Positions 35,901-51,048 of a DNA stretch of 64,000 bases are shown one piece after another. This DNA is from a virus. A model generated the notes under the pieces. That model had not been told where the DNA came from. It saw only the letters and a list, made by a program, of their open reading frames with translations, and made no database searches. The translations under genes were made by a program, and so were the position numbers. Position 1 is the first letter of the stretch. The number at the start of each line of letters is the position of its first letter. Where the stretch lies: positions 45,212 through 109,211 of IMG/VR virus record IMGVR_UViG_3300035204_001773; one strand, given 5' to 3'.

Positions 35901-38900
35901 TACTAAATTCAGGAGGATTAATAAAAGGTTGACTTATTCCGGGAACACTAACAACGCTTTCAGCTGAGTTATAAGTAACATTCCCAACTCCAGAGATTTT
36001 CATATTTTTTATAGCGCCAGCCCTATATCCCCCCTCTAAAGCTTGCGATCTTTCTATGCTTGCGCTCAGTCCGCCACCACCGGGGACAAATCCATGAGCG
36101 GCTCGCGATTGCTTTTCTCTCAAAGCCTCTATTTCGCTTTCTGTTTGTCTTAGTCTTGCTCTTATTGGCCCCCTGTCTCGTTCATCCGCTGCTTGAAGTT
36201 CATTTTCTATTCGTCTTTTTTGTGCTTGTAATTGACCAAGCTTTTGGTGGGCTTGTAAATTTTCGTCCAATGTTTTAGCGGTTTGAGTGGCAACTCTAGG
36301 TTTTTTAACTCTTTGCCCTATTGAAAATGGAGAATCCTCTCCGTCTCTTTGTTCTCTTGCCGCTTGATCGAATACTCCTTGTAATCCACGAGCATGTGTT
36401 GAGGATATTCCAAATTTTCGCCCCGCGCCGGGTGCTTTAAGCATGTTAGCTATATCTGCTGCACTACCAGCGCCCTCGGTTTCAAAAATATTTTTTAACG
36501 TTCTCTTTCTCTGTTTAGCATCCATTCCTCCCATGGCGGCCATCATCTGTGGATCCATTGCGAGTTGACCTACTTGCATATCTGCATCTCGTTTTGCATC
36601 TTTCAGTTTCTTTTTGTTCGCCTCTCTATCGCCTTCTCTTTCGAATTGATCATACGCATCTTGCGCCCCTTGAACGCCTCTTCTTGCTGCTCCCATATCA
36701 GTAGAAGCGCTCGTTAACGCGGCTTGTGGATCGAAGTTAATTGCAGAAGCTAAATCTTTAGGTAATGACCCTAATCTTCCATCAATAGATTTTAATTGCT
36801 GCAACTGTTGCTTGTCTATAGCACCAGTCATGAATTCTTCATCGAATACATTAGCGACACTTTCTTCTGCTCTCCCAGCTTCACGTCTCATACCAGCGAC
36901 AACTCCGCGTGGAGCCCCTGCGGCTTCCGCTTGATCAGCCATCATGTTAAGCTGATTTGATCTGTCCTTACCCATTTGTTTAATGAAATCTCCTCTAAAT
37001 TTCATCAGATCCGGGAACTCTATCTGTAGTCTTCTTTGTACTTCTTCGGCGGTTTCAACTCCACCCCCTGCTTTCACCTGAGCCTCTTCTCTTCCTCCAA
37101 ACAAACTTCCACCCATCAGTCCCTTCAATCCTCTGAGCATTTCCGCAGTACCTTTTGCTTGTTGCCCTTTAAAATCAGCCCCAGCTTCTTGGGTTTTTTG
37201 CATACGTATTAATCCCTCTAGAAACCCTTCTATATCAGCGGTTTGCTTATCTGGATCTAAAAGTCCATCCATTCCTCCAAGCATCGAAACGTCACGCTTT
37301 CTTTGTCTTTCTTGTTTCTCAAATTCGAAAGCTTGTTTTGCTATATCAATCTGTGCTTGAGTATTTATACTTAATTCTTTAAGTTGTCTTAATACCTTCT
37401 GCCCCTCTTCTCTACTGCTTCTTACTAATCTATTTATTAATTTGGGCCCCAACGCGCTAGTGACGTCAGATCTTTCTGTAAATTTCTTTATAGCATCTGC
37501 GGTTTCTGTTGCGCTTAAATCTTTATTTTTTTCCATCATAGCAGTGAACTCTTGAGAAATTCTTCCTATGTCATCTGCCTGTGATCCCTTTTTCTTTTCT
37601 TGAAGTTTGGTTAGCTCACTTTGAAATTCGGAAAGCTGCTTGCCTCTTGCTCCTCTGGTTGCGTCTTGAGCCTTCGTAAACTGATCATTGCGAATTCCTG
37701 CCGTTTTAACTTGTAAACCAAAAGCGGACGCACCCATGGTGCCCCTTCTCATCATGCCCATGCCGCCCTTTAATCCTTCTATGTCGACCCTTCTTCTCGC
37801 GCCACCTTCAATATCTTTGATTTTTGTAACGAACATTAATGCGTCATTAAAATTTCGTTGAGCTTCCACGAACCCTTGTTTGGCTTGATCAAGAGCTTCT
37901 TTTAATTTTTCTGATTGTTTTCGAGCTTTCTCTCTCGCTGCATTACTTTCGTCATGTTTATCACTATTTTCTTTTTGCGCTTGAATTAATTTATCCATTT
38001 CTTTTGCGAGAATGGTTAACCCGCCCTTGCCTTCTAAATTCTGTATACCTTGCTGCGCGTTCGCATTAAGACTTAGGCCTGCATTTTCCAATATTGATAT
38101 GATTGCACTAGCATCATCGCCAGCGCTTTTAAGGCCCGGGCCTCCGGCTAATTTTGTCATGGCATCTCTATTTGAAAATGCACCTATCGAACTCAATACC
38201 TCCTTTGCATCTTCTTCAGCAGCCTTATTGTCTATCTTTGATCGTTTTGTACCAAAAGTTCCACCAGTTTCATATGGGTTGCCGAAATCCATCATGCCTA
38301 AAGTAAGACCTTCGGCAAGGGTCTTAAGGACTCCCGCATTGCCTTGCTGCTGTCTTTTGGTAAGATTGTCCCCGGCTACTTTCTGATTTCTATCTTCCTC
38401 TAGTCGCTGGCGAGCCTTTTCATAAGCTTCTTTTAATTGGTTTGCGCTTACAGCCATGCCCATGGCCATTCCTGCTTCTTCATCAATAGCGGTAATAGAA
38501 CCCATTAAGTCTAATAATTTCTTATCCAATCTTCGCATCGTTTCGAATGGGGCAGCGCCGTCTTGTTTAGCGGAGTTTAACTGGTCCCACGTAGACATAT
38601 ATTGAGACATGGCGTCATTTATTTCTGTATATTTTTCTTTAGCCGTCTCTGCGTCTTTAGCCATATCTTTCGCGTTCATCGCGATGTCTCGAATCCACGC
38701 GGTTGCTTTGTCTATACCAACGGCTAGAGCAGCCGCTCCGCCGACGACTCTTCCAAAAGTTCCCGGAAGGACAGCAACAATAGCAGAGAAAGAGTTCTGC
38801 ATCCCAACTAATGTATCTGTAACGCCCTTAGCTTCGGGCACAATTTCTCCCAAACTCATTCCTATCTGGGACATCATAAAGGATCTAGATAACTGATCCG

Positions 38901-41900
38901 AAGAAATATCAGAGTCTACCCTTTCTCTTCTAACGTCGGATAAACCCGCCGCTCCTATACCCACTTCTTCTCCAGCACTTCTCATACTTGAGGCGGTCAC
39001 CGTGGTTTTACCAGAAAGATTCGCTTTATCGCCTTCTACTTTTACTAATTCGCTTTCTACCTGCTCTAGTTGTGCCAACGTAACATTATATTCGTCAGAA
39101 CCTTTCTTCATTGTTTTCAAGGTTTTAACTAGAGCCTTCACCTCTTTTTCCATCGTTTTAACAGCTGGTTCTAAACCGCTCAACGGCGAACCGAGAACAC
39201 CTTTAGTTAGGTGTCCTCCGGCACGCACAGCTGCACCCATTTTACCCGACGTAAGAGTGGTTTCTTTTTCTTTTAACCAACGAGCGAATCCACCTTCTTC
39301 GTCATCATCAAGGAAATTTGGAATATAACCAGCCGCAGCTATTCCATAAGTGTTGGGATTTTTGCCTTCTTTTAGAGCTCGACTAACGCCTTGTCCAAGT
39401 CCTTTCTTTTCGTCAATATCGTTACCAACACCAAGGTTCAATGGGTTTGCGGTAATTCTTTTATCTTGCCCCAAGAAAATATGACTCTTCGCTTCTTGTC
39501 TGGAGATGTCTTCTCTAACTGATAAGGCATTTATTTCCCTTTCTTCTGCCTTTGCAACTTGCTCTTTTATACCCGGTGTCCATGCACTTCTTGTAAAATG
39601 TCCATCTGCAAAATTAGGAACATAACCTCGTGCGCCGTGTATTCCTCCAATTCTTTTTACTTCTTGTTCGCTTCTTGGAGAATGATGTTGCCATCCTCCC
39701 GCTGAAATTTTTTGTAATTCTTGGTCCGGACCATTCCAATGTTGTACATCGAAATAGATTGCTTTTTTCATTGCAAGATCTATAAGTCTAGCAACCGCTT
39801 CTTGTCCATTTCTGCCAGCGCCCAACTGCAAGCCAAGCCACCTCCGAGTCTTTTCTCGATTCATTAGGCGTTTCGTGCCATGTTTGGTTTCTCTTAAACC
39901 GCTCGACGCCTCACTTCTACGAGCAAGTTCACCTGCTGTGCCGGGGCTACCATCTGCAGGAGGAATCTCCGGCGCAGAACCGACCTCTTCGTCACCGGGT
40001 GTTAATTCTAACATGGCTCCGCGATGTTCTCCCCATCGTTGTGCGACACCCTCACTTCTACTTAATGAAGCAACTCCGGGTTGAGACTTTGTTCTAACGC
40101 TTTGATCAGCGAGCCACCCCTCAAAAGATCTTAGTGATTCTTCGGGAGTATTTCCTTCTCCGGCTTGTCTAGTTGTTGTTACGGTCTCTTGTTTCCAATC
40201 TGACCAACCCACGTTAGTGTAGGACATATCGGGTCTGCCATCTTCACCATATTGATATTCTCCTTCTTTGTATCCCCGAAAAAGATTTAGGAAGTTTGGT
40301 ATGAATCCTAAGCTCTTCATATTAGCTAAATTTTCTGGCTTAGCTAATTGTAAAATTCTTTCTACATCATTTATATTTGTAATTTTATCAAAGCCCTCAT
40401 CTAAAGTAGGAGCTTCAAAACGATTAAACATACCTTCAATAGCTGCATCTGGTATAGTTTTGCTACCGCCCTTGGCTTTTGTTAGTTCGGCTCTCCTCGC
40501 TGTAATCGCCTTAACAGCTGATATAACTTGCTGTTGTTTTTCGTCTGGTAATTGAGATATATCACTAAAGACTACCGCCTGTTTTTCGTACCCTTTAATA
40601 TCATTCTCATCGAACATATTTAAAGACATTGATCGTTCTCTTGCGGACATGTTTGTCATATCTACAGAAATATCTTTACCTGACTTACCAGCTTCCGCAA
40701 CCCTTTTGTCAAATTTATTTTGAATCTCGCTTCTAACTTGGCCTATTTTATCCCAAATTAATTTAGGTATCCAAGGCTGTTGTTCAGCTTTCTCTTCATC
40801 GTATTCTGGATTTATAACTGCTTTGCCATATTTAGGATGAGTTTGACCTAATCTAGTTCCCGCTGCGGGTGTCTCAAATGAGTCGTCATAAGTCAGTCCC
40901 ATGTCTTTAGTTACTTGATTGACTATGTCATCTCTACTTACGATGAAATCTTTCGGCGCGTTCTCTTTGAGCCAAGTTGATTTACCAACCCCCGGAGCAC
41001 CGACAAGTGTTCTTAATTTTCTCGCAAAGCTCGGGACATGTCCCCTACCAAATCCCATACCGCCCATGTCACCCGCTAATGCGCCCATTAATTCTCTATG
41101 AGCTTCTTGAGAAGACTCGCTTCGCCCATCATTAACGTCTCTCCCGTTAAATTTACTGCCCGGTCCCGCATTTATAAATCCACCTTCCCCAGCATGAGAT
41201 TCTCTTCTTCCTTTCAAATAAGCAGCGGCTTGAAAATGAAATCGCGTCCCGGCCCTTGGATCATAGGTTGCGGTCTTGCCTCCATCAGCACTAAAGGCAA
41301 CCGAATCATTTTTCAAATCTTGTCCTCTTGCCCACTTTTCAAAATTTGGGACAAAACCTCCTGCGCGACCCTTGCCCGTGCCCCCGGCTCGTTTGTCCAC
41401 GCCCCCCATCTGTAAATATTCCGCCTGTTCAGCCTCTGATAGATCACGCATTACTTGCTTCCGAATCGCCGCTTCTTCGTCTTGCTGGCTCATTCCATAA
41501 AGATTCACGCCTTTCCGTCTTAACGTCTGGCGTGCTTTTATCTCAAGTTGGTGAAAATGCTCCCTTCTATTCTTCCTATTTTTCTCGGTTTCTTCTCTTG
41601 TTGGCTGGATATTACCTTGTTCATCTATCGCGCCCAAACTCCTAAACTCAGGTTCATTACCCGTAAAGACAGCCTCTATAAAGCTGTGCCCCTTTGCTCC
41701 TATGCCAAAAATATTATCCCCACTAATTTTTGGACTATATTCATTAAAGAATTCTTTAAGGCTGTTAATAGAATTCTTGATCTCGTCTTCGTTCAACAAG
41801 TTGCCAAGGTTTCTTGCGCTCATCTTTTGGCTTGAGGGACGCTTGTTATCTTGTTTCGGAATAAATGATTTAATGGTTCTTTTAAGTCTTGCCCATAGAG

Positions 41901-44900
41901 TTTCTTCTTTTCTTATGAGATCTTTGTCAACCTCATTGCCCGTTGGCGTTGTGCCTTTAAATCTTTCAAAGAAATTCGGAATATTACCGGCATATTTCGC
42001 TACTAATTTTTTCTTTCCAATCCGCGCGATATGATCTTTATGCAGATTATTCGCTCGCACAAGAGCTTGATCATATGCGGGATCCCCTGATTTACCCGTT
42101 TGTAAAGCACTGATTTCAGACGAATTCAAACCCATTTCATAAAGATAATGAGGCTCTTTCGATTTAAGGTCATCTGAATCAAAATCAGTAGCTTTGATCT
42201 CTAGCCCCTGCATAGGCATCCCCGGGGTAAACATACCTCCAAATTCTTCTTGTATCCTTTCGTTAGATATATCTATTGGTTCTTCGCCAGCTGTATAAGG
42301 TTTTCCCGAGACTGTATCTTGTGGTGGCGTTCTTCCTCCTACCGTCGTCTTTTGCGCGGTAGTCATTCCATGTATCATGCCTTCCCATAATGCTCCAGCA
42401 AGATCCCGTTTTGTCCCAACTGGTAACTTCATGCCGCCTACAGCGAATTTGCTTTGCAACTTGCCAGTTACTTGTGCTAACTGATTCTTAAAGTCTGGAT
42501 CTTGAAGAGCAGCCTCTTCATCACCTCCGTATGATTGCTTAACCGTCATCCCGGGTCCAGCTTCGTCTATAAACCAAGTTCCCATATTTGGTAGGACGGT
42601 CCCAGAAACTTGTTGCTCTACTTTATCATAGAACCTATCTCTTATTCCTGAATCAAATACTTTCGGATCAAGTCCATAACGCTGAACTCTCGATGATTTG
42701 TGTCTAGAAGATATTTCCGAAGGCTCTTCTGCTGATCCACCAGACTGTCCCGGCGCTCTTGTGCCCATCGTGAGAACTGGGGTATAATGAGGCGCGCGTT
42801 CTCCTTTAGATAAATTTATTACCGTGCCATCTGCTAACGTAATTGTTTTGTCAGCAGCAAAATTAGGCACGTTCCCCCACGCGGCCATAGCTTGTTTATC
42901 TCCCATTGCGCCGAGTGCCGAGCCCTGAGCGCCACTCTTGTCAATATGATCTCTAACCCAACTAAGTTTTCTTTTTGGTCCCGTTCCCCTATTATCGCTT
43001 TCGTGAACGTAAGTTCCTAAGCTCGGCGCGTACCTCCATAAGGCGTTTGCGTCGTAATGATCTATTTGGCTTTCCTTCTTCTGCGCAGACCTTAAAGAAG
43101 TCGATAGCCCCTTAGTAGTACGCATTGAGCTAGCGAAACTTGGAACAAATCCTCCAGCAACGCGTTGACCAGTTGTTGTGTCGATCATGTCAGGATCAGT
43201 AACCACATGCCCCTTACCCATCTCTCGAGCTTTCTTTAATAATCTTACGTGCTCTTGGGATACGCTTTTCCCCTCGCGGCTACGATCTATTACTTTCTTA
43301 TCTGGCCCGAGGAGAAGATGATAGTTTCCTTCTGTTCTATCTTCGAAGTTGGGAACAAAACCTCCTGCTACTCTTAAACGAAGCCCTCTGGCGTGACTAA
43401 TAGCATCCTCGGGGCTCTTAAAAGTTTGACCTGTCGGGTTGTATTTCCATCCTCGAGTTGTTAAAGGGCTATCATAAAGAGACTGAACATCATTCATTTC
43501 AGTCATTCCCTCAAATGGCTCCTGTCCTTTAGGCCAATGAGGCTTGGGATGTCCTGCGTCCATCAAATCTCGAACCGTTAGCCTTGACAACCGAGAAACT
43601 TCCTCATCGTACTCGGGGTCGCCGGGATTCGCCGGTAACATAAGATAGCTAGGTCCACCATCGAATCCTCCATCCGGCTTATGATGTTTTTTCCATCCTG
43701 ATGGTCGTGCAAAATTTGGAATAAAACCTGAAGCCCTCTTACTCCTTTCTATTCCGCCGGGATTTGCTCCACGGTTAGCGAAAGGAGTTTCAAAAGTCTG
43801 CACTCCCCGAACCCCAGTCATATTTAATCTTTCAATTTCTTCTATATTAGCCTTGGCGTCATCATACAAAACTAACTCGGGACTTTTTCCTGCTTCTTTG
43901 GCCTTTTTGCTCATTCTAGCCATTAGCAAGGTTTTCTTTTGAGCAGCATTTAAATAACGCCATTGCCTACTTCCTTGCCCCTCTGGCCATCCATCTTCGC
44001 CTAATTTTTCAAACTGGCCATGAAATCTACCGCCTTGAATAAAATCTTTTTTTCTAACAAGGCCTACTTCAAGACCTGTCTCAGGATCAATTGTACTAAA
44101 GTCTGGATTATCCATAACCTTCATGTCGTTGAACATGGATCCGCTAGTTATAACCCTATCAACATTTACCCCTTGACTTTCGAGTTGTCTCCTGATTACC
44201 GCGTTTGTTCCCTCTCCTTGAGTAATGGCTTGACGTGACCCTGCTCCTCTAGCAGTCGCTACAGTGACTGGTGCTTGTGATGCCTTATAATCTTCTCCTC
44301 TACTTGTCAGGGTTGACTTCTTTACCGACCAAGGGAATGCAAAAGATCTACTTGGCATATCGGCGGGATATGTGCCAAGATTTTCATCATAGTCTTCGAG
44401 ATTAACTACTTCACCGTCTTCTAAATCTCTGGGCCTTACATAGTTAGGAACAACACGTCTTCCTCTATTTGAGGAAAGAAAATTAGGTACGTTACCGCGG
44501 AAAACATTATACGTTTTTCCCTTGTGTCTTTTTAAATCCGGTCTTGCTTTTTCTACTTCATCATAGAAAGCGGTATAATCTATGGGCGCATCTAACGTTC
44601 CCGCTAATTGCTCATGGCTTCTTGCGTCATCCCTGTGAGATGTTGATAGTCTAGATTCCCGTTGACCTCGCACTTCTTCTTGAGATTTGTCAAGACCAAT
44701 TAGCCTCTTGCTCATTCCAAGCACGTTACCGAAGAAATCATTATTAAGACTTTCCCCTCCATGAATTATTGCGAACTTATCCATCGCGTCGAATTGACTC
44801 TGGTTAGTTACCAGAACCCCTTTTCCTACGTTGGGTATTTTCTTATCAAGAGCTTTGTTGCCTGATTTCAAACCGGCGAAAGTAGATTTCCCTGAGCCAG

Positions 44901-47900
44901 CTGGCCCCATGACAGTACTCACGGGCTTGCCAGTTTGAAAAGCGTCATAAACCAATTCTTCCCACGAATCTCTGTCCATTTTTGATCTATCGAAATCGAG
45001 AACACCTCTAGCAAAATTTGGAATCATTCCTGAAGCTTTCAACGCCATACTGCTCGAATCAAACGCTGGAACATGCCCCATGTACTTCGGTAGAGCATTT
45101 ATGGAACTAGCTGTTGTCGCTAGTGCTTTTCTAGACTTTCGCTTTTCCTCTTCCTGTCTTCTTGTAAATAAAGCGTGAGAATGCTCCCATTGCTCTTTAA
45201 ATTGCCCCTCGTTAATAAATGAATTTATAGTATCTTTACTTATTTCGCCCCCCTCGTCTCCTGCTGTTCGAGAAAATTCGGAACCATGCAATAAAGCACC
45301 GATAGTTTTATCTACCCTTTCTTTATCCGCTGCCCCCATGTCCCCAGAGAAATACGAGTCTGGATCTAAGCCTTCTAATTCTAACCCAGCGACTTTTGCT
45401 ATTGGATTATTTTTTCTTTTAATATTCTCTTTAGATGATAAACCAAGACCTCCGTGTTTCGGGTCTCCACGCCTTATGCCAAACCAATCTTTAGACCCAG
45501 CGGTTTGAACTGTATTAACTATTCTAGAACCAAACTCGGTTGCTTCAAATAATTTATCAGCCATACTATTCATATTACCCTGACTCGTACTATTTTTGGC
45601 ATCTGCTAAAGGAGTTTTCACACCAAAGGTATCAGGGTGCCTAAGCTTGTGATATCCCCCATCTCGCCCTTCCATATAGTCCCATCTAGTAGAACTAGAT
45701 TTAGCAAAATCAGTATCATCATAAACTAAAGCATCCACAGACCCCTCGAACGCTCTACCAACTGCTTGAGCCATTTGCCCTGTTCCAACAACTTTATTTA
45801 CATATTTTTTGATATCAGCCTCGTCAGCTGGCGGTTTAAAATATTGATTTGCATATCTTGATACTTCTGCTCCAATTTGATTATTGATTGACTCTTGCGC
45901 CTCAGAACTATCCGGTGCTCTTTTCGCTGACAAAGCAGGAAAAGAAGCCTTTAAAGAAACCCCATAAGCTCCGAAGGTCTGTTGTGCTTTATCATTAAAT
46001 TTTACATTATAAACCCCCGGAGTTGGTGTGCGCTTACCCCCACCTTTATCAGGCAAGAGTATGGAAGCCATGTGATGAGCATTGACTACTCCTCCGGGTA
46101 AAATATCTGCTTGACCGCTTGCTCTTTTGAGTTGCTTTTTAATTGGGTCTAATTTTTCATTAGTTAAATCTAAATAAGTTCTTGGAATTTTTAATTTCTC
46201 TTTCTCTGCTGCCATAAAATTAGGCACACTGCCAACTGCTGTAAATTTATTAAACTCACTCTTCTTAACTTTCTCAATTGTTTTTTCTAAAACTTTTTGT
46301 ACCTGCGGTTTATACTTTGGTAAAATAGCTGAATCTCCACCCTTAAGCCCCTTGGGTTTAACGCCGTATCTCTGAAACAGTTCTTTAGCAGTAAACTCCT
46401 GCTCACTAGAATTCATTATTACGCGTTTACCATCGATCGTGCCCCTAGACATATGCGCTCTAGTTCCAGAGGCTGCCCCCATAGCTCTGGCCATCTTTGT
46501 TTCTTCTTTATATGGGTCATAAAAGAAGTTAGGAATATTGCCCGAGGCATTCCCGCCGCCGCCTTTCTTCCCGGGGACATCCCAACCACCGCCCTTCATA
46601 GGGAACATAACTCCTCCGCCAAAACTTCCAGTAGAATGCATTGTCTTAGCTAACATAGCAACAATTTTAGCTTGATTCGTCATTTCTCTATTCTCTGCTC
46701 TTATTTTTTCTAAAAGATCTCTATGAACATCTGCAAGAGATTTTGTACCTCGCATAATTTCTTTTAACATCCTCGGCTCTTCAGCAAGCAGTGAATTCAA
46801 TTGGGTTTGAATCCTCTGTTGGTCCGCCATGTGCTTACCTCCCCCGCTAATCGTTTTAAAAGCGTCTACGGCATAAATCCTAAGTTTATCAAATAATTTA
46901 AACAAAGCCATAATACCCACGGCAAGACCCGGACCTTTTAAAAATTCTCCGAGACCTTTCGACATTCCAGAAGAAAGCTTAGATCCCAGACTCTCTCCCG
47001 AAGCCCCAAGGTCGGTTGATTCTAAAACTGTATTTATGCCCGAAAGAACTCTTTTTATAGCGGGGGCAAGAGCATCTTCTCCCAGCTTAGAACCGGCTTG
47101 TTTTAAATTAGCCATGGTTCTATTAATTAAAGTGCTAAAGCTTTGGTTCAATTTTTCATTTCTCGCAATAGCTTCATCGGTAGCAGAGGTGGCAATACCT
47201 AAAGCGTTTTCATATATTGAAAATTCTTTTGTTAAATCACTCAAAGAAGCTTTTAAAATATTAATTTGGAATACGCCACCAACTAATTCAGCAATCTGAG
47301 CTTGTTGCGATTGCGCTAGGCTATCGTACTGCCTCGCTAAATTTTGCAGCACTTGCATAAGAGGCATCATTTGCCCGCTTTGCTTTTTGGTTTGCACGCC
47401 AATTTCTTCAAGTGCCTCTAAGACTCTAGGCCTTTGTATTCTTGTGAAAATAGTTTTGAACGCGTTACCAATAACATTACCACCACGAGCAGTAACTTGT
47501 TGAGTGGCCGTTATAACTGCAAGTAGTTCTTCAAATTTTACTCCCGCTCCAGCAGCCGTGCTTCCTACTCTTCGGATTGCTTCAGCAAGGTCACCAGAAC
47601 TCACGGCAAAAGCCTGATCAACCTGAGCCATCTTACTAATTATTTCTGTAGAATTTAGAGCCGCCCTTGAATAGCCGTTCATAGCAGCAGTAATCGCGTT
47701 TACAGCAGCGGCGGCATCTAATCCAGAAATTCTTGTTAGTATAAGAGCGTCTTGGGTCCTTTTAAGGGTTTCTTGCATCCCAAGACCTTGTCTTGCGAAT
47801 TCTCCAGCAGCAGTAGCCACTGTTTGGAAACTTTGCGCTGTGTTTCTGGCTACATCAAATAATGAATTTCCAAATTTAGTAAGTTGGTTTTGGCTAGTAT

Positions 47901-48189
47901 TTAAAATTGTATTAATTTCTGTTAAAGATTTTTCAACCTCCACAGCGGAACTTACCATTTGTCTAAACGCATCTTGAACACCCATAATAAGACCAGCGGA
48001 TGCGCCAAAGGCAAGTACACGAGCATTAGAAGCGGCGAGAGATTTTTCAAATTCACCCAGATCCCCCTTGATGCGACCAAGAGGAGCGCCATCGAAATTT
48101 ACAGACACAGGTACGCGACTTAGCTTCTTAAGCCTCTTTTCGAGAGGGCTTAAATCACCATGTACCTTGACTGTTACTGATCCGGGCAT
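23956..48189 (-). CDS. giant (8077 aa) tape measure protein with embedded enzyme cassettes (polyvalent TMP)
   Basis: N-terminal TP901-type TMP core (EVEKSLTEINTIL...AAGEFARQG...ALILTRISGLDA...FAVSSGDLAEAIRRVG...RGGNVIGNAFKTIFTRI). Canonical position after tube and chaperone genes. Two hydrophobic blocks, long coiled coils, 17x GxxPNF and internal enzyme motifs. Confidence 0.92.
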   Translation of the reverse strand: MPGSVTVKVHGDLSPLEKRLKKLSRVPVSVNFDGAPLGRIKGDLGEFEKSLAASNARVLAFGASAGLIMGVQDAFRQMVSSAVEVEKSLTEINTILNTSQNQLTKFGNSLFDVARNTAQSFQTVATAAGEFARQGLGMQETLKRTQDALILTRISGLDAAAAVNAITAAMNGYSRAALNSTEIISKMAQVDQAFAVSSGDLAEAIRRVGSTAAGAGVKFEELLAVITATQQVTARGGNVIGNAFKTIFTRIQRPRVLEALEEIGVQTKKQSGQMMPLMQVLQNLARQYDSLAQSQQAQIAELVGGVFQINILKASLSDLTKEFSIYENALGIATSATDEAIARNEKLNQSFSTLINRTMANLKQAGSKLGEDALAPAIKRVLSGINTVLESTDLGASGESLGSKLSSGMSKGLGEFLKGPGLAVGIMALFKLFDKLRIYAVDAFKTISGGGKHMADQQRIQTQLNSLLAEEPRMLKEIMRGTKSLADVHRDLLEKIRAENREMTNQAKIVAMLAKTMHSTGSFGGGVMFPMKGGGWDVPGKKGGGGNASGNIPNFFYDPYKEETKMARAMGAASGTRAHMSRGTIDGKRVIMNSSEQEFTAKELFQRYGVKPKGLKGGDSAILPKYKPQVQKVLEKTIEKVKKSEFNKFTAVGSVPNFMAAEKEKLKIPRTYLDLTNEKLDPIKKQLKRASGQADILPGGVVNAHHMASILLPDKGGGKRTPTPGVYNVKFNDKAQQTFGAYGVSLKASFPALSAKRAPDSSEAQESINNQIGAEVSRYANQYFKPPADEADIKKYVNKVVGTGQMAQAVGRAFEGSVDALVYDDTDFAKSSSTRWDYMEGRDGGYHKLRHPDTFGVKTPLADAKNSTSQGNMNSMADKLFEATEFGSRIVNTVQTAGSKDWFGIRRGDPKHGGLGLSSKENIKRKNNPIAKVAGLELEGLDPDSYFSGDMGAADKERVDKTIGALLHGSEFSRTAGDEGGEISKDTINSFINEGQFKEQWEHSHALFTRRQEEEKRKSRKALATTASSINALPKYMGHVPAFDSSSMALKASGMIPNFARGVLDFDRSKMDRDSWEELVYDAFQTGKPVSTVMGPAGSGKSTFAGLKSGNKALDKKIPNVGKGVLVTNQSQFDAMDKFAIIHGGESLNNDFFGNVLGMSKRLIGLDKSQEEVRGQRESRLSTSHRDDARSHEQLAGTLDAPIDYTAFYDEVEKARPDLKRHKGKTYNVFRGNVPNFLSSNRGRRVVPNYVRPRDLEDGEVVNLEDYDENLGTYPADMPSRSFAFPWSVKKSTLTSRGEDYKASQAPVTVATARGAGSRQAITQGEGTNAVIRRQLESQGVNVDRVITSGSMFNDMKVMDNPDFSTIDPETGLEVGLVRKKDFIQGGRFHGQFEKLGEDGWPEGQGSRQWRYLNAAQKKTLLMARMSKKAKEAGKSPELVLYDDAKANIEEIERLNMTGVRGVQTFETPFANRGANPGGIERSKRASGFIPNFARPSGWKKHHKPDGGFDGGPSYLMLPANPGDPEYDEEVSRLSRLTVRDLMDAGHPKPHWPKGQEPFEGMTEMNDVQSLYDSPLTTRGWKYNPTGQTFKSPEDAISHARGLRLRVAGGFVPNFEDRTEGNYHLLLGPDKKVIDRSREGKSVSQEHVRLLKKAREMGKGHVVTDPDMIDTTTGQRVAGGFVPSFASSMRTTKGLSTSLRSAQKKESQIDHYDANALWRYAPSLGTYVHESDNRGTGPKRKLSWVRDHIDKSGAQGSALGAMGDKQAMAAWGNVPNFAADKTITLADGTVINLSKGERAPHYTPVLTMGTRAPGQSGGSAEEPSEISSRHKSSRVQRYGLDPKVFDSGIRDRFYDKVEQQVSGTVLPNMGTWFIDEAGPGMTVKQSYGGDEEAALQDPDFKNQLAQVTGKLQSKFAVGGMKLPVGTKRDLAGALWEGMIHGMTTAQKTTVGGRTPPQDTVSGKPYTAGEEPIDISNERIQEEFGGMFTPGMPMQGLEIKATDFDSDDLKSKEPHYLYEMGLNSSEISALQTGKSGDPAYDQALVRANNLHKDHIARIGKKKLVAKYAGNIPNFFERFKGTTPTGNEVDKDLIRKEETLWARLKRTIKSFIPKQDNKRPSSQKMSARNLGNLLNEDEIKNSINSLKEFFNEYSPKISGDNIFGIGAKGHSFIEAVFTGNEPEFRSLGAIDEQGNIQPTREETEKNRKNRREHFHQLEIKARQTLRRKGVNLYGMSQQDEEAAIRKQVMRDLSEAEQAEYLQMGGVDKRAGGTGKGRAGGFVPNFEKWARGQDLKNDSVAFSADGGKTATYDPRAGTRFHFQAAAYLKGRRESHAGEGGFINAGPGSKFNGRDVNDGRSESSQEAHRELMGALAGDMGGMGFGRGHVPSFARKLRTLVGAPGVGKSTWLKENAPKDFIVSRDDIVNQVTKDMGLTYDDSFETPAAGTRLGQTHPKYGKAVINPEYDEEKAEQQPWIPKLIWDKIGQVRSEIQNKFDKRVAEAGKSGKDISVDMTNMSARERSMSLNMFDENDIKGYEKQAVVFSDISQLPDEKQQQVISAVKAITARRAELTKAKGGSKTIPDAAIEGMFNRFEAPTLDEGFDKITNINDVERILQLAKPENLANMKSLGFIPNFLNLFRGYKEGEYQYGEDGRPDMSYTNVGWSDWKQETVTTTRQAGEGNTPEESLRSFEGWLADQSVRTKSQPGVASLSRSEGVAQRWGEHRGAMLELTPGDEEVGSAPEIPPADGSPGTAGELARRSEASSGLRETKHGTKRLMNREKTRRWLGLQLGAGRNGQEAVARLIDLAMKKAIYFDVQHWNGPDQELQKISAGGWQHHSPRSEQEVKRIGGIHGARGYVPNFADGHFTRSAWTPGIKEQVAKAEEREINALSVREDISRQEAKSHIFLGQDKRITANPLNLGVGNDIDEKKGLGQGVSRALKEGKNPNTYGIAAAGYIPNFLDDDEEGGFARWLKEKETTLTSGKMGAAVRAGGHLTKGVLGSPLSGLEPAVKTMEKEVKALVKTLKTMKKGSDEYNVTLAQLEQVESELVKVEGDKANLSGKTTVTASSMRSAGEEVGIGAAGLSDVRRERVDSDISSDQLSRSFMMSQIGMSLGEIVPEAKGVTDTLVGMQNSFSAIVAVLPGTFGRVVGGAAALAVGIDKATAWIRDIAMNAKDMAKDAETAKEKYTEINDAMSQYMSTWDQLNSAKQDGAAPFETMRRLDKKLLDLMGSITAIDEEAGMAMGMAVSANQLKEAYEKARQRLEEDRNQKVAGDNLTKRQQQGNAGVLKTLAEGLTLGMMDFGNPYETGGTFGTKRSKIDNKAAEEDAKEVLSSIGAFSNRDAMTKLAGGPGLKSAGDDASAIISILENAGLSLNANAQQGIQNLEGKGGLTILAKEMDKLIQAQKENSDKHDESNAAREKARKQSEKLKEALDQAKQGFVEAQRNFNDALMFVTKIKDIEGGARRRVDIEGLKGGMGMMRRGTMGASAFGLQVKTAGIRNDQFTKAQDATRGARGKQLSEFQSELTKLQEKKKGSQADDIGRISQEFTAMMEKNKDLSATETADAIKKFTERSDVTSALGPKLINRLVRSSREEGQKVLRQLKELSINTQAQIDIAKQAFEFEKQERQRKRDVSMLGGMDGLLDPDKQTADIEGFLEGLIRMQKTQEAGADFKGQQAKGTAEMLRGLKGLMGGSLFGGREEAQVKAGGGVETAEEVQRRLQIEFPDLMKFRGDFIKQMGKDRSNQLNMMADQAEAAGAPRGVVAGMRREAGRAEESVANVFDEEFMTGAIDKQQLQQLKSIDGRLGSLPKDLASAINFDPQAALTSASTDMGAARRGVQGAQDAYDQFEREGDREANKKKLKDAKRDADMQVGQLAMDPQMMAAMGGMDAKQRKRTLKNIFETEGAGSAADIANMLKAPGAGRKFGISSTHARGLQGVFDQAAREQRDGEDSPFSIGQRVKKPRVATQTAKTLDENLQAHQKLGQLQAQKRRIENELQAADERDRGPIRARLRQTESEIEALREKQSRAAHGFVPGGGGLSASIERSQALEGGYRAGAIKNMKISGVGNVTYNSAESVVSVPGISQPFINPPEFSKAGKAHKQRSKAAWGINPYTVASDGYTPGEKITYKVPSLAAGGSPSPIEVFAPSPDLLPSTDGLRKVEVKYDKLEKWYSEWHDAIARNPDIVNHTELTSDNVLDWQKYDNVKQRIKSSTGINLTPQIALNMPMGAVGMNNTKDFIDRVKSEQEEIRKGNLSNFSLFRGQNEFFTLGQPKENLPGFLHIPEQGGRTRSEFVRGARKMGNQVYHLRTPSQPSVSVSSGTSINEFHGMLQSNGIAKNSGEWTRLMYSFIQKNNPKEKWSEEANKWGINAGSLGGIAAASKARTKQEMMGRGGAHKPVKGSDGNTYANLSPIREYLTSLRNDPETGRDPRAQRELTRRYIQQYYGPKDWKRAYRYLYSLETGIPAYQLGALGDSGGLDERTAIWAFGQTGGRDPKIDGTLGDPSNLSGASLMPAGRGRPVGFDPATGRFLHEDQRKWLQDRGKLRVDHGRKTYAQGMVPMSFAAGGFVPGTGSFGQVYQADIWNKLGMGGTKFTNQEKLDMLDLYDDLLKGRSRGLIDSLPGGTSVRGGVANVLDRRSGHHSTWFGARGGPLGTGGSRKQMVLDTPMGGQAINLAGEEEHSWRAMNAFYAGLSPYFMGSALTDAPEKVKQKKPKKAAQVKKDSKNNWVRNTAKWFTNLGKKTSAGLGGVGMSIKEAMNMASRYKMPFNIKDTWRSWKSSMAEGARKIGGPIVDKVKGMGAGALNKLHGKLFTNYFAEGKIGKLVGGMSKRYAMFESIKLSNLYEQNMAKKTGSPTGVLGESIKKDYANAVKQNWDITKQNTTNKPGGASGARWGGWWDATKNQVVVDDEIVKAGKQKGGAGQMARNVQRGLIVHEMTHALESGKAAQNLGGEASKNAASQYLLKSMGAQVELSQQQAGVGQKGGAAEHRMGTMSPDEFMRQRLGDTAPDKSLMDQAKTSTKGGFSKRAWMKRTHRQVMGGLGEAYNKALATGKSVTVSPSRLAMNAFSGLPPEMADQFSKMLSQQMNDIEIKPGDKRFLNKDGSFSRQKLFKMVKGQAGYQRMIKEIGNRVQLGSIDEEYKTYSTQRMAERMGAKGNWVMAKDFLKVAVPHLLREKNVHPSQLKERFMNFAREKFGRVPKTTALSIHGEKNMGTIQADSNKPALKMSEKFFNSRAGRMLTGLADLRKSPLYRGVKFTGGQISDLSKKFTNLSRSPILKALRGYKQDFSRGKRFTGKMKFDEIKNQKEQIKSRNRMTRIGASVGSAESLAKSIKSQVSKATGSVKTNFWNQVGAFKHGYTGGAKGAFVATDSALRTEGLGKGAAASVQHLKSALGQGQQFAKNLVNMQKSPILNKIIEGHAGAKGMLGDFKHGFKSGNLRKFNIAMPGAPEVKASGAQKLGATFKNLSTSLVDGIGRGKDNFKTWSKSKLNSMKARFNQTELVKGYRFGAGQPTGRQHGGFQGKVEHSRMRKFGAGIKGGQDLVKKLQHQIATGLVDAGETVKSSPVGKAVGSVHKAAASFFDFNRSPLVSKGKKFRGDFSRARRFFGKLSGPQRNSLMAMPEFKSRSLATKLGIKTIQAGDFLKNLFGTPKQAAQLQAATSGTKIDTSGLDKKKPTLAERLRKPYDNFKRGRRFMQKISPEERQNQRAQMKTRDAYTKAGMKSVLAMDYMKNLKKKLGSIPGRLKEAGGKSFADIKKGWKAGALNLDKPERMKFSKEGSGYRGRLVRNTIPMEQLKKGPAANNMSRSEWLARRARIGAGVTKEWLKNLPSRFGGLMNKHLQKSPVMEGFKIGRQGGRGEEMRRLFPDARTGLPGGKREGMFGALGRMTGRFASQLPLVAKGENFWTGKRSLVPSWITEGAREQAMTPKERKAHERKEAAKDRRLARRALQDPNVLKDQLGLTDDQIKLLQKKGLLKKLGSARSFDKVIASLAEQTKSAKKGHGKNRLRIRELSAMNKAANFSVGRSANDGAGGKWSGSVRAPSSRVSSLAAILTDRSMSRAGGGPSARGNVVELSQQNVERMKALDPDFKQEGGKARAKLETNARSSDPKVAGKAKFALANRGYKAGAMGLKGVGKGAMGFGNPHDVNIRKAVAQFEKTRARIEKKVGNGSMSYSKGQNMLKAAWTKHVEGGKNTPLDKVAALPPDKSGRSGAQKLGRLMMAKAGPDSGLLEKQLQAIEKDPGRRSADATKQRNAQLGRLQADALKTEQNMKVKADQELLARRLDAASKDLAKGIEGRRDGKVKTAMKTIGKLSHKIGLYRPEQGGLMSRTLFGNNYKQMWQMGKQKWGFGGGKFGGGTIGRDLRGGAVGIGAGLATGWIGKYLMQNENKTIAKIGEGIATYGGYGVGTYMIMRGLEKEAQQRAAKELAEGAIEQSVKSGSKKSAVKKAADFFTDASDKGLRGAAYKKAGEGLDKVAKKGGIWKSVKASKSGQWTKGMAKKFGGSSAIRGLGVGIVGQMIGSHFVNKAYAKEMEGLQGRMEKGGVDGADATVEMHQLQLQKDRVATGTRLGIDILAMGPALLAGGPVGAAIWVAMTAATLADHFRRQKDMKADEAGAKINAAIARAGEKDHGIRQQLASALWDEVLTQPGSQNRFGLSLNFGEGENAALIYDAEKAASTQKLMSNLIQTGTTASADSSALIDMEKELLRISPEEMRNMSDRLEHYTGKSGKELAAMEPSERAEYIKNNADLAWYDKLSSLGMGDDPEGFAQRTAALFAQQAEMRKASGRFASLEELDSGKLPEATAKRNKILSEMKDIPGLPDEVKMMFKVGEEMNKLDMREEATKAQFKHLEREQMGQSWYEGIDKTMMPGRMQSNIDAQNEVAGRKRDLKAIAEQSRAGRMGGKYHKAMQEGNLVDAEEMLKRGGANEAAIKAWREKMKKMPAMKEKIEARETQLVSQQYVDKNTGKTIKKTQLYKAADGKTYYMSGGRRVEAITRGSFVQDLSATGAIKVEEGDDGESIVRDHRGNILARGSGAKLMDQLHKNIFTGKEGKGDSRLTRKELSEVEIERKMDAKKYGTQGNQRLGVISRAGQTKDMGQMLSMDIQGNAEMIRRTKDPILKRKLQDSQRKTMRKKMLWSIQNAAQEFKEAPNNPPWVKQAAAARFAKIAGNQVAFAQRFGIDFKIGNMKQMMIDDWGGGDRNAITAENWINTEEALEHSLGISQQGFTYGKASGHALDYVRGKYQSARGEKKEKYRDMLEDQKKRASDNMAKSFARQQVAQQKLRALEIRGQGLDSSQAVPDTLLQSLGLSQYAGQKMSMAKVKSALRAERNRHSDMVQAESVRGGKASIDRSGVDVSLADLSMAGAGGFAGGTLLENPQLMTEFGLGGGQSVDPLTGQPGKPSTLFEAAGIDPLMAASPYGQRFKGVALQMLAGGQEAAQLQQAMKSTNDPAMQKRYAKELEKIKLKNQKLKAALEASKQYWQKTLVSDLTVGPGAGPDKAFLADAVTRFGKDLTPEQKTQAAGALFNTGPEGIAQAQRIAGEIRDQITQKRVGDYFNQYENTQAFGNQGKTVGQKKRADDTKLFGQLMVGTGMEMEKLAGGTSVGYEDDPDNLAAMKMFQLMKDANIPPKDFLFNMAKQTGMSEEDMQTPAFRKWLNTTSSAYAEEWQRQETATGVGTKGFSQSGFNKAVGNARDRIEGYVVREGVGSRGVGVKGRDSKGELGGTRKNSFFRDGGTVKVGKGDQASEWKLDPETGEWMKLLTIPGKEEKQWRYVDPSEVSEFQGQVYGEIAQMDPTAGKSGQVLDDALARMSNAELEQLANLKMAKTVLDEERRRRGVKGGQNLAKGFIPNFARGSGSAGKHRGFIPNFSSQLEEAKDREITALMGRGYSKSDAEGSVYVAEHPAIKSNNLRIQGIAAKGYVPNFGVGVFNRIDEPQGPDQGISRARSEGANVNTYGSRTGGVPNFSSGRAAGFVPNFEAATQQINMAATSFGEEISKAAESLSANLEGRSRKDEIEQIRNIGGDSNQTANINVNIDGTVQAIPNAIAQAVIDWSKGNILKGGGYFPPNRTS
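24238..24645 (-). repeat. C-terminal cluster of five G-x-[IV]-P-N-F repeats in the TMP
   Basis: KGFIPNF, RGFIPNF, KGYVPNF, TGGVPNF and AGFVPNF within about 135 aa. Confidence 0.9.
39310..46551 (-). repeat. dispersed peptide repeat G-x-[IV]-P-N-F, main cluster (12 exact copies plus PAF, PNY and 2 PSF variants)
   Basis: Copies near 46525, 46220, 45065 (PAF), 45015, 44480, 44440 (PNY), 43712, 43345, 43135 (PSF), 42860, 41972, 41342, 41027 (PSF), 40292, 39611 and 39314. Confidence 0.9.
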
Positions 48190-48250: not shown

Positions 48251-49480
48251 TTAAGAAATTGCCTTATTCTTTTCGTGATTTTCGAGAATCTCTGCTTCTT
48301 CTTCGGTAATATCGCCCGATTCTTTGAACTCTTTTAATTTCTTTAAGGATTCATGATCCCCTTCTTTTGCGGATTGTAAAGTAAATTTTCTATTATGCGC
48401 CAGTATTTCTTGGTGTTTCTTTTCTTTTTCGACTGGATCGATATTAGAACAGTCTACGTTATGAATTCTCAATAGATCATAAATGTCAAAGTCGCCCTTT
48501 TCATCTTTGACCTTCTCAAGCTCACTAGCGAGATCTACTATATCTTCTCCGCCCTCACGCCTAGATTCCATTTCTTTCTTATCTAACCCGGGCTGAGAAG
48601 TTCCCCCTACCCATTCATCATTTTCCGCTTTGTCAGCGGTGCTCTTAGCTCCTCCCGGCTGCCCCATTTTCGCTTGGGAATAGTACCAATTTACTAACTT
48701 ATCAGGATCATCGTACCAAGTAGCGGGTGGAGTTATTCCGTCTTTGCTATTCTCTAAAAGATTTTTGTACATTTTTCCTTGACTTAATAATTCTGATTGA
48801 AATATGGTTAGTTCAAGAACTGTCTTGTCGAAGAATATTCTTGGGTCGCCGGTGGACAAAAAATATTTATTTAGAAAATAAGGTTGAGTAGCTATTCTCT
48901 GAATGTTCCTACTATCGAAATTTTGAAAAACCAAATTATACTCTGCAATTAAATTATTTAGATCTACTTGGTCTATGTATTCGAAGGTTTCTTCGGTAAA
49001 GTATTGCTCTTTACATTCTGTGTCTGTATAAAAAGAATGATATATATTTAAATCACTATGTTTTCTTATTAAGTGATCCTCTAAAGTTACGCCTAATATC
49101 GATTTTCTTCTATTTTCAATTTTTGATAACTTCGCATGCGCTTCATCAATATTTTTTTCATAGACGTGTTTTTCTAGATTCCCCACTTTTTCTTTAAGGG
49201 CGCTTTGATTATCTATGAATTTTTTAGTTGATTTGAACTCGGCCTCTTCCTCCGGTGTCCAATTTTTGTTTTTTATACACTCTTGTATTTTTTCAGCTTC
49301 CACAAGGAGCCCGTTCGCTCTAGCTTTTTCTGAGTATTCATCTAGCTCATATTCGACAATAGATATGTCATTATCATTAAAATGTTTAATGTATAGATCG
49401 AACTCTTTAGAGTAAGAATACCCTCTTATTATATCAGAGTAATATACCCTTAGCTTTCTTCTGAGCTCTGCGAGGTCCAC
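48251..49480 (-). CDS. putative tail assembly chaperone (second)
   Basis: Acidic, helical protein directly upstream of the TMP. GTG start with upstream AAGGAAGAGG. Confidence 0.5.
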   Translation of the reverse strand: MDLAELRRKLRVYYSDIIRGYSYSKEFDLYIKHFNDNDISIVEYELDEYSEKARANGLLVEAEKIQECIKNKNWTPEEEAEFKSTKKFIDNQSALKEKVGNLEKHVYEKNIDEAHAKLSKIENRRKSILGVTLEDHLIRKHSDLNIYHSFYTDTECKEQYFTEETFEYIDQVDLNNLIAEYNLVFQNFDSRNIQRIATQPYFLNKYFLSTGDPRIFFDKTVLELTIFQSELLSQGKMYKNLLENSKDGITPPATWYDDPDKLVNWYYSQAKMGQPGGAKSTADKAENDEWVGGTSQPGLDKKEMESRREGGEDIVDLASELEKVKDEKGDFDIYDLLRIHNVDCSNIDPVEKEKKHQEILAHNRKFTLQSAKEGDHESLKKLKEFKESGDITEEEAEILENHEKNKAIS

Positions 49481-49483
49481 GCA

Positions 49484-50608: not shown

Positions 50609-50949
50609 TCTTTTTCCTTGTTCTTTTGTTCTTTGAAATCTACTTCAATCAAATCCATAAATTTCTCTATGTCTCTAATGCCTTCGTTTCCAAGATCTAA
50701 AATCTTTTTCCTTATATAATTATATTTGTCAGGAGTGAAATAATCAATCTTTTCTACGAACTCTTTAGAAGTTTCTTCTTCGACTTTTTTAAGAAATGAA
50801 TTGTGTTCTCTTTGTAAATCTTCTACGAGATTAATGTACCTCTTGTATAAGTTAATTACATTACGATTGACCACGAATTGGAAAGCTCCTTTTACCTGAT
50901 CACTAACTTTTTGCCCTTTATAAATGGGGGGTATAGATCCCTTACTCAT
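50605..50949 (-). CDS. hypothetical helical protein (tail assembly region)
   Basis: 114-aa ORF with AAGGAATAAGG upstream; ATGA-coupled to the next gene. Confidence 0.7.
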   Translation of the reverse strand: MSKGSIPPIYKGQKVSDQVKGAFQFVVNRNVINLYKRYINLVEDLQREHNSFLKKVEEETSKEFVEKIDYFTPDKYNYIRKKILDLGNEGIRDIEKFMDLIEVDFKEQKNKEKE

Positions 50950-50960
50950 CCTTATTCCTT

Positions 50961-50974
50961 ATATAATTTTACAC
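50961..50974 (-). promoter_or_regulatory. putative late promoter motif
   Basis: GTGTAAAATTATAT directly after the terminator and before the 50949 start. Confidence 0.55.
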
Positions 50975-50992
50975 GAAAAAGAGCAAAAATCC

Positions 50993-51028
50993 AAAAAAAA
51001 AATCCCGCAGGATAAACCTGCAGGATTT
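50993..51028 (-). terminator. Rho-independent terminator after the tail tube gene
   Basis: Minus strand AAATCCTGCAGG-TTTAT-CCTGCGGGATTT (12-bp stem with one G.U pair) followed by a T-run. Confidence 0.85.
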
Positions 51029-51048
51029 GAAATTAGCGAACTAATTTT

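Follow-up and report, generated by a model that had tools for sequence, protein, structure and literature searches.

A ten-residue peptide at the module borders of a giant phage tape measure protein

The stretch of viral DNA analysed here (the window, 64,000 nucleotides) carries a giant open reading frame with 20 copies of the peptide G-x-[IV]-P-[NSA]-F, where the protein's own composition would predict 0.03. The locus raises the question of whether this motif is conserved as peptide or as DNA, and of what reads it.

The N-terminal domain identifies the protein as a tape measure protein. PF10145 (PhageMin_Tail) matched aa 114-301 with 102.8 bits, the cut-off (Pfam gathering score) being 33.2, and PHROG tape measure families matched this domain with a best E value of 1e-53. 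The only other Pfam family found in the ORF was AAA_33, in a kinase-like module, and its match of 25.8 bits was below the cut-off of 27. The whole array of modules gave no match to solved structures by sequence at E up to 0.1, and in the phage collection no isolate phage matched the giant ORF beyond the N-terminal domain. By arithmetic only, 8,077 aa would extend to about 1.2 micrometres as a pure helix. The features of the ORF are as follows.

23956-48189, minus strand: tape measure ORF carrying the motif (8,077 aa, no cysteine)
47017-48021, minus strand: N-terminal TP901-type tape measure domain (aa 57-391; PF10145 and PHROG)
46867-46923, minus strand: hydrophobic segment 1 (aa 423-441; Kyte-Doolittle 1.27), about 110 aa ahead of the first motif
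39313-46542, minus strand: motif-delimited module array (aa 550-2959), 15 canonical copies plus RVVPNY, 13 modules of 64-379 aa
38725-38781, minus strand: hydrophobic segment 2 (aa 3137-3155; Kyte-Doolittle 1.61), about 180 aa past the array
35812-36093, minus strand: second A-type module (aa 4033-4126), between the degenerate motifs GFVPGG and GYTPGE
34471-34506, minus strand: SFAAGGFVPGTG (aa 4562-4573), FA-x-GG motif fused to a degenerate GFVPG
33370-33384, minus strand: HEMTH (aa 4936-4940), zincin-like signature, not common to relatives
24241-24636, minus strand: five clustered motif copies at the C-terminus (aa 7852, 7869, 7925, 7966, 7978)

The motif array is thus placed between two hydrophobic segments of the tape measure protein. 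A TM-like segment was found at the position of segment 1 in 91 of 149 relatives, and within 500 aa past the last motif in 89 of the 149. The second A-type module is 46-48% identical to the module that comes first in relatives, and the C-terminal motif cluster surrounds a second copy of the terminal module T (aa 7877-7963).

Fifteen of the 20 copies lie at aa 550-2959 (39313-46542), and the other five at aa 7852-7983 (24241-24636). The range of 39310-46551 given by an earlier, sequence-only reading corresponds to the former; the five C-terminal copies fall outside it. The three codon strings quoted there are exact and in frame in one ORF, but they are on the minus strand. The copies in the array are listed below.

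46525-46542, minus strand: GNIPNF (aa 550)
46216-46233, minus strand: GSVPNF (aa 653)
45061-45078, minus strand: GHVPAF (aa 1038), first member of a close pair
45013-45030, minus strand: GMIPNF (aa 1054)
44479-44496, minus strand: GNVPNF (aa 1232)
44440-44457, minus strand: RVVPNY (aa 1245-1250), degenerate copy
43711-43728, minus strand: GFIPNF (aa 1488)
43345-43362, minus strand: GFVPNF (aa 1610), within the quoted string 43345-43374
43135-43152, minus strand: GFVPSF (aa 1680)
42859-42876, minus strand: GNVPNF (aa 1772)
41971-41988, minus strand: GNIPNF (aa 2068)
41341-41358, minus strand: GFVPNF (aa 2278)
41026-41043, minus strand: GHVPSF (aa 2383), where the kinase-like module begins
40291-40308, minus strand: GFIPNF (aa 2628)
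39610-39627, minus strand: GYVPNF (aa 2855), where T copy 1 begins
39313-39330, minus strand: GYIPNF (aa 2954), where T copy 1 and the array end

The closely spaced pairs pointed out earlier, GHVPAF with GMIPNF (aa 1038 and 1054) and GNVPNF with RVVPNY (aa 1232 and 1245), are genuine. Their description as empty slots suits this protein, but such pairs are rare in the family, in which only 21 of 1,387 spacers are shorter than 30 aa. The spacers are irregular, from 2 aa to several hundred, with a median of 150 and a 5th-95th percentile range of 63-567.

Related loci were retrieved with an alignment of the family, whereas queries with a single protein or a four-sequence alignment of T gave none. 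The motif was found in at least 545 viral contigs, none of them from a cultured phage, and the family consensus is the ten-residue peptide A-[AS]-x-G-[FY]-[IV]-P-N-[FY]-[ASV], present in about 1,000 protein clusters. In 1,518 distinct instances the sequence information was limited to positions -3 to +6. Gly and Pro are invariant and Asn is 96% conserved (360 distinct instances, and later the set of 1,518); the conserved Asn is always followed by an aromatic residue, and aromatics stand on either side of the P-N turn. Position +6 is mostly small (Ala 0.61, Ser 0.12, Val 0.08), and the information drops sharply after it. A literature search on the peptide strings of the motif returned nothing relevant.

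At the variable positions, the copies within one protein agree with each other more than shuffled copies do (z = 12.6 at +1 and z = 7.3 at +2); for example, Leu occupies such a position in 13 of 18 copies in the relative P0094. Module duplication, or exchange among close relatives, could partly account for this agreement. Since the copies agree within a protein at +1 and +2, and yet the motif-bearing contigs are binned with many different phyla, we think that the reader of the motif is encoded by the phage.

We then compared the codons across the copies, drawing the codons of the null set from the gene's own usage. At G, P, N, and F, 261 pairs of copies had the same codon, against 283 +/- 22 expected (P = 0.86). 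That is, the codons of the invariant residues follow the gene-wide usage, which means that the peptide itself is conserved, as the sequence-only reading had stated. The mean identity across 30 nt around the copies was 54%, and the longest exact run of DNA common to two non-overlapping copies was 14 nt. It had also been suggested that residual DNA similarity could seed cassette exchange. If the repeats were leftovers or substrates of module exchange at the DNA level, the peptide would have no function of its own; module exchange indeed falls exactly at the motif. On the grounds of the randomised synonymous sites and the short common run we rejected a DNA repeat as recombination seed, and we give the whole explanation almost no weight. 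Invariant Gly and Pro and 96% conserved Asn, in spite of randomised synonymous sites, are explained only by selection on the peptide.

The possible origin of the motif from the FA-x-GG motif of tape measure proteins is only hinted at by the sequences. A hybrid, SFAAGGFVPG, is present at aa 4562-4571 of the giant ORF, and a motif-poor relative (L017) has RFAAGG where M1 was expected; A-x-G-G precedes 96 of 616 strict copies.

The segments between the motifs are very diverse. In relatives, 639 inter-motif segments fell into 179 sequence clusters, of which 133 were singletons, and identical module types were found at different ranks in different proteins. The kinase-like module, for instance, has rank 12 here and rank 4 in the relative P0002, with the motif at its start in both. 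When homologous modules were paired, their offsets from the motif differed by no more than 3 aa in 83% of the pairs on the N side and in 66% on the C side. All modules, the universal ones among them, have the motif on either side. These results indicate that the motif is in register with the module borders, the modules themselves varying in kind and in rank from relative to relative.

The predicted structures place the motif in flexible linkers of low confidence outside the folded modules. In the model of a minimal relative all four motifs had pLDDT below 50, as compared with 63-77 for modules A and T, and in the T module of the window the core had 87-94 and its two motifs 36-64. Because the flanked modules are unrelated and the motif lies outside the confident core of T, the motif is not a strand of a repeated fold, which the sequence-only reading had named as the finding that would speak against it. 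The confinement of information to -3 to +6, the conservation of the peptide in about 1,000 relatives, and its position in low-pLDDT linkers bear out the view that selection acts on a short linear peptide. Searches with the fold of T were negative, VIA giving Z values no higher than 3.3 and Foldseek giving E above 0.7 with viral models, and the model of the minimal array found no structural match at Z 5 or more.

What might read the peptide was sought both inside and outside the protein. The idea that other virion proteins carry the motif was not upheld: among the remaining real ORFs of the 109-kb contig none has a canonical copy (one near-match, GKLPNF, lies in a 287-aa frame outside the window), and the flanking frames of 106 related loci (396,000 residues) have no copy outside the tape measure gene. 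Eight upstream genes are syntenic in 75-93 of 98 loci, while conserved downstream genes are found in 16-24 loci; these upstream and downstream genes did not match named tail families. The nearest of them are as follows.

48251-50949, minus strand: three genes for acidic, helical proteins, immediately upstream of the tape measure gene and kept in 81-93 of 98 related loci

These three genes matched no Pfam or PHROG family, and in the ESM Atlas they matched only uncharacterised viral clusters. They are candidate tail-assembly chaperones and candidate readers of the motif. They persist, however, in L017 and L024, two relatives with degenerate motifs, which means that these genes are not tied to the canonical motif.

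The main competitor to docking is that the motif is a polyprotein cleavage site. The cut would fall between the invariant aromatic and the small residue that follows it (G-[FY]-[IV]-P-N-[FY] before A/S/V), either once the tail is complete or following ejection, and would free the modules in the host. The motif lies in flexible linkers at every module border, as a polyprotein site would, and the asymmetric profile, with six strong positions, a small residue, and then nothing, looks like that of a protease site. N-degron residues are also depleted at +6 (5%, as compared with 23% at +7 and 28% in the background). Moreover, the array holds enzyme-like modules that would be active in the cytoplasm (the AAA_33 kinase-like module, and a GNAT domain inside the array of the relative P0010), and wall-degrading domains of relatives lie in the C-terminal part without motifs; the polyvalent proteins supply the concept (PMC5512222). 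Against these points, no peptidase family was found in the giant ORF and three relatives, and no cognate protease in the tape measure protein, the conserved modules, or the 10-kb flanks of the relatives' loci; the conserved modules A, B, and T and the eight syntenic upstream genes have no catalytic signature. The internal zincin suggested earlier as the protease (HEMTH, aa 4936) matched no Pfam family, and almost all motif-bearing relatives lack its HExxH; we rejected it as a conserved cis-acting protease. The prohead protease is not supported as a reader either, for nothing appears to place the tape measure protein in the prohead. A host protease fits poorly with a site that is invariant across contigs binned with many phyla and has lineage-specific variants at +1, and in the window +6 is Phe or Leu in 5 of 20 copies. 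A cut before assembly would separate the head-proximal domain from the ruler part; because the ruler must stay whole during assembly, as established for lambda and TP901-1 (PMC5099701), early cutting is disfavoured. Taken together, we consider cleavage somewhat less likely than docking. A signal peptidase I site (A-x-A) was also rejected, as position -1 is Lys or Arg in about 21% of copies.

Two further explanations need no outside reader. The motifs of three (or six) chains might pack together between modules as a homotypic clamp that keeps the chains in register. Invariant Gly and Pro, nearly invariant Asn, and aromatics flanking the P-N turn would suit such packing; the motif is unstructured in monomer models, as expected if it became ordered only in the oligomer, and it would be needed on both sides of all modules, universal ones too. 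This packing has no obvious use for the tandem copies 6-11 aa apart that occur in the giant ORF, and a sequence kept so strictly over about 1,000 lineages would be more usual for a ligand with its reader, so that we regard the clamp as quite improbable. Self-cleavage by the conserved Asn, of the asparagine peptide lyase type between Asn and Phe, is less probable still, and we think little of its chances. The coat proteins of nodaviruses and tetraviruses are cut at Asn-Ala and Asn-Phe during maturation, and the constant Asn with its aromatic neighbour, the part that the protein takes in cell entry, and the fruitless protease searches are in its favour. The known lyases, however, need a folded catalytic setting, while the motif lies in linkers beside unrelated folds; Asn is replaced by Ser or Ala in 3 of 20 window copies; and the product of the cut would begin with Phe, which is an N-degron in bacteria.

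We therefore return to docking. We favour, with a probability of roughly 0.4, the reading that a tail-assembly partner encoded by the phage docks at the motif over the reading that it is a cleavage site; we infer that the partner is conserved. Its most likely identity would be one of the three upstream acidic helical proteins, or the tube protein. Such an assembly factor would dock at each junction and keep the module-bearing stretch soluble and ordered, and the tube would then assemble over the factor-bound tape measure. A module set between two copies would then travel in the tail and leave it before the DNA does. Docking would be compatible with cleavage of the same peptide at a later stage. 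A point that runs counter to docking is the sharp stop of information after +6, which resembles the P6-P1/P1' pattern of a protease whose cut yields a new N-terminus that is stable. In a wider, more tentative form, which we think has somewhat poorer odds than an even bet, the ten-residue peptide may be a self-sufficient and portable handling signal; that is, a module between two copies would be packed into the tail along with the tape measure protein, delivered to the host, and then either cut loose or retained at the pore of entry.

The layout can be compared with known systems. MARTX toxins and viral polyproteins have a mosaic effector array between pore-forming or hydrophobic regions, with short linker sites, and they carry their own protease (a cysteine protease domain, or 3C/NIa). 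The array here has a similar layout, but no protease of its own was found, and the likeness would be one of analogy and not of homology. The known repeats of tape measure proteins are periodic units of 11 or 18 aa (Trp/Phe), whereas the motif here is aperiodic. The protein shares its N-terminal PhageMin_Tail domain with the TP901-1-type tape measure protein (PF10145; PMC5099701). Both have two hydrophobic regions, in the giant ORF one after that domain and the second further on, and the C-terminal wall-degrading domains of its relatives are another likeness. The stretch between the hydrophobic segments, however, measures 129 aa in TP901-1, and in the giant ORF it holds 2,400 aa of unrelated modules, all bordered by the one peptide. 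In the Thermus phage P23-45, the N-terminal part of the tape measure protein (5,002 aa) is an active virion RNA polymerase (PMC10770324), and this giant protein with an N-proximal enzyme delivered in the virion is an experimental precedent for module delivery and for the activity of such modules in the host. It has one fixed enzyme, no reported delimiting motif, and no exchangeable array, unlike the ORF described here, and our searches found no sequence similarity between the two. Polyvalent proteins (Iyer et al. 2017, PMC5512222) are likewise very large, string together conflict-type domains (kinase, GNAT, nuclease-like, zincin), are mosaic among relatives, and are believed to accompany the invading DNA. 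Their hub domain, a zincin peptidase, is not conserved in the family of the giant ORF, and the paper contains no mention of tape measure proteins, nor does it describe a peptide common to all junctions.

The recognised roles of tape measure proteins are those of ruler and channel former, and that of P23-45 is one known to carry an enzyme. In a very large clade of uncultured aquatic phages, the stretch between the hydrophobic segments is a row of exchangeable modules with one peptide at each junction, and splitting the proteins at the motif offers a sequence handle for finding such cargo in metagenomes. A physical question is also raised, namely how 2,400 residues of cysteine-free globular modules are stored in or near the tail tube and pass into the cell. 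If the peptide is sufficient, it may open a route to loading chosen proteins in phage tails. If it is indeed a handling signal, the array would be a natural plug-in rack for pre-made phage effectors in more than a thousand uncultured aquatic phage lineages.

The tape measure gene lies in the window, which forms the final 64 kb of a linear viral contig from IMG/VR; the contig has 109 kb and is estimated to be 64% complete. On the evidence of its N-terminal domain, we assign the 8,077-aa product to the TP901-type tape measure family. Beyond this domain and a sub-threshold kinase-like AAA_33 stretch at aa 2395-2532, no Pfam family matched the remaining protein. The features considered here, in which modules are the segments between motif copies, are as follows.

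Features of the tape measure protein (window coordinates or residues, strand, description)
23956..48189, minus strand: tape measure ORF, 8,077 aa, a single frame holding every copy of the motif array
aa 57-391, minus strand: domain of the TP901-type tape measure family (PF10145 at 102.8 bits, cut-off 33.2; best E 1e-53 among PHROG tape measure families)
aa 423-441 and aa 3137-3155 (the second at 38725-38781), minus strand: two hydrophobic segments bracketing the array
aa 4033-4126, 35812-36093, minus strand: second A-type module, with the degenerate motifs GFVPGG and GYTPGE
aa 6582-6600, 28390-28446, minus strand: third, equally hydrophobic segment, within the C-terminal portion resembling the related protein P0005
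24241-24636, minus strand: C-terminal region with the second T module and five motif copies

The pattern G..P[NSA][FY] occurs 20 times in this protein, in addition to one RVVPNY, while the expectation from the protein's own composition is 0.03 copies. Fifteen copies lie at aa 550-2959 (39313-46542), the range described in the sequence-only reading, and the other five lie outside that range at aa 7852-7983. Every other real ORF of the contig was devoid of a canonical copy; a near-match, GKLPNF, occurs in one 287-aa frame outside the window. When the other genes of this contig and the frames in the 10-kb flanks of related loci were searched, only the tape measure had the motif. A logo of 1,518 distinct instances gave A-[AS]-x-G-[FY]-[IV]-P-N-[FY]-[A 0.61, S 0.12, V 0.08], and the information was confined to positions -3 to +6.

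The sequence-only reading held that conservation of the motif is at the level of the peptide, not of the DNA, and the three codon strings quoted for it match the sequence exactly, but on the minus strand. Same-codon pairs at G, P, N and F numbered 261, as compared with 283 +/- 22 drawn from the gene's usage (P = 0.86). The copies had a mean identity of 54% over 30 nt, and non-overlapping copies shared exact runs of at most 14 nt. These results indicate that the motif is kept as a peptide. The further proposal, that residual DNA similarity seeds cassette exchange, found no support in the codon test or in the 14-nt longest shared run. Closely spaced copies resembling empty slots are real in this protein but rare across the family, where only 21 of 1,387 spacers are shorter than 30 aa. 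Descent from an FA-x-GG motif is hinted at only: of 616 strict copies, 96 have A-x-G-G in front of them, RFAAGG stands at the position of the first motif in the related locus L017, and most instances of [FYH]A-x-GG itself (226 of 303) fall in the motif-free part.

The minimal member of the family has the order N-terminal domain, M1, A (~82 aa), M2, B (~260 aa), M3, T (~74 aa), M4 and ~1,100 motif-free residues, where M1 to M4 are motif copies and A, B and T are modules. The extra modules of larger members sit between M2 and M3, and protein length correlates with motif number (r = 0.78). Across the family, 639 inter-motif segments fell into 179 clusters, 133 of them singletons. T was the final module in 116 of 127 cases, and the ranks of other clusters vary. 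For example, the kinase-like module has rank 12 here and rank 4 in P0002, a 6,376-aa relative with 10 motif copies; the two share 41% identity, and both start at a motif. Modules that are homologous keep register with the motif: N-side offsets differ by no more than 3 aa in 83% of pairs, and C-side offsets do so in 66%. T was always accompanied by motifs (both in 128 proteins, T alone in 0, motifs alone in 20). At L017 and L024 the motifs are degenerate and T is absent, with the upstream genes and A/B-like segments kept. Module B, the near-universal middle module, has invariant G..FE, FD and DFK, of which E...FD...DFK forms a PD-(D/E)xK-like pattern; its AlphaFold2 model was poor (pLDDT <50). 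The counterpart in the window (cluster 4; aa 1054-1232, ~44497-45012, minus strand) also carries a P-loop-like GPAGSGKST.

In AlphaFold2 monomer models the motif is a linker element, outside any fold. The segment from M1 to M4 of a minimal relative (17-sequence alignment) gave pLDDT <50 at all four motifs and 63-77 in A and T. For the T module of the window, modelled from 57 aligned sequences, the values were 87-94 in the core and 36-64 at its two motif copies. Structure comparisons found no recognisable relative of T. The analysis shows that the junction motif is a short linear peptide, under peptide-level selection, that delimits an array of exchangeable modules in the tape measure.

The whole protein seems to consist of more than one tape-measure-like unit in tandem. 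T is present twice (aa 2878-2950 and aa 7877-7963), a second A-type module occurs, and the last 1,800 aa, from aa 6276 onwards, resemble P0005 (2,647 aa, without the PF10145 domain). Several T modules also occur in two other giants, P0099 and P0089.

With the C-terminal module as query, 70 proteins were retrieved, mostly TP901-type tape measures of 1,400-4,000 aa with a few short fragments, and 69 of them had 1-14 motif copies. Relatives are encoded on at least 545 IMG/VR contigs and on 23 contigs from MAGs that bear the labels Flavobacteriales, Proteobacteria, Marinimicrobia, Halobacteriovorax, Saccharibacteria, Nitrospinales and Verrucomicrobiales. With T and two motifs as a profile, 1,237 clusters (50% identity) were matched, 985 at E up to 1e-10, and nearly all were giant proteins. 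Isolate phages in the phage collection gave no match past the N-terminal domain.

Copies within one protein agree beyond shuffled expectation at +1 (z = 12.6) and +2 (z = 7.3), and not at +6. This agreement is consistent with a reader that has changed along with each lineage and is thus phage-encoded, although module duplication could contribute to it. We infer that a phage-encoded partner reads the motif. Eight upstream genes (48251-61339, minus strand) keep their synteny in 75-93 of 98 loci from relatives and matched no Pfam or PHROG tail family. The three nearest (48251-50949), which separate a putative tube gene from the tape measure gene, encode acidic, helical products with no catalytic signature and no known family. 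Lambda-like phages have two chaperone products in this position, and by position and composition the three products look like tail-assembly chaperones. A 2,104-aa ORF (52078-58392, minus strand) has three Calx-beta stretches, with Ig-like domains at its C-terminus, and may be a decorated tail protein; the adjoining 58408-59733 is a member of a conserved upstream cluster.

Our leading reading, to which we give a probability of roughly 0.4, is that a candidate tail-assembly factor would dock at the motif. Cleavage at the motif is a somewhat weaker possibility and on balance doubtful. It would account for the abrupt end of information after the small residue at +6 and for the scarcity of N-degron residues there (5%, as compared with 23% at +7 and 28% in the background), but +6 is F or L in 5 of the 20 copies here, and searches of this protein and three relatives yielded no peptidase family. 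The internal zincin, suggested earlier as a candidate, is not supported as the reader, since nearly all relatives lack its HExxH (aa 4936 here). We consider a homotypic clamp improbable, self-cleavage at the asparagine very improbable, and a DNA scar hardly worth entertaining; the remaining probability belongs to some other explanation. In two relatives the tape measure frame is interrupted soon after a motif copy: in L058 (9977-13012) it stops 31 aa after M4, and in L023, whose assembly was Pilon-polished (error-corrected), it is in several pieces. Such interruptions may reflect either a genuine division at the junction or faulty assembly.

Of 149 proteins, 91 have a TM-like hydrophobic segment ~100 aa ahead of M1 and 89 have one within 500 aa past the last motif; such segments are rare inside the array (14 of 149). 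The segments bracketing the array here recall the pair of hydrophobic regions in the TP901-1 tape measure, for which the 129 aa in between are predicted to lie on the cytoplasmic side (PMC5099701). Within the array are domains whose expected place of action is the cytoplasm, a kinase-like one here and GNAT in the relative P0010, and relatives carry the wall hydrolases VanY and SLT in their C part, which has no motifs. Cysteine is absent from the 8,077-aa protein and from 137 of 149 family members, its fraction being 4.6e-5 in the family as compared with 1.2% in ten neighbouring large ORFs. This absence fits a protein that is stored or that passes unfolded through an oxidising compartment.

A search of the full-text literature with the peptide strings found nothing relevant. 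A paper on polyvalent proteins never mentions tape measures (PMC5512222), and the P23-45 tape measure, fused to RNA polymerase, is an experimental precedent (PMC10770324). By analogy, the 8,077-aa protein may work like a polyvalent protein or a MARTX-like effector array. However, no universal junction peptide is known from polyvalent proteins, MARTX or the P23-45 tape measure, nor from previously described TP901-type tape measures, which have the N-terminal domain in common with the present protein.
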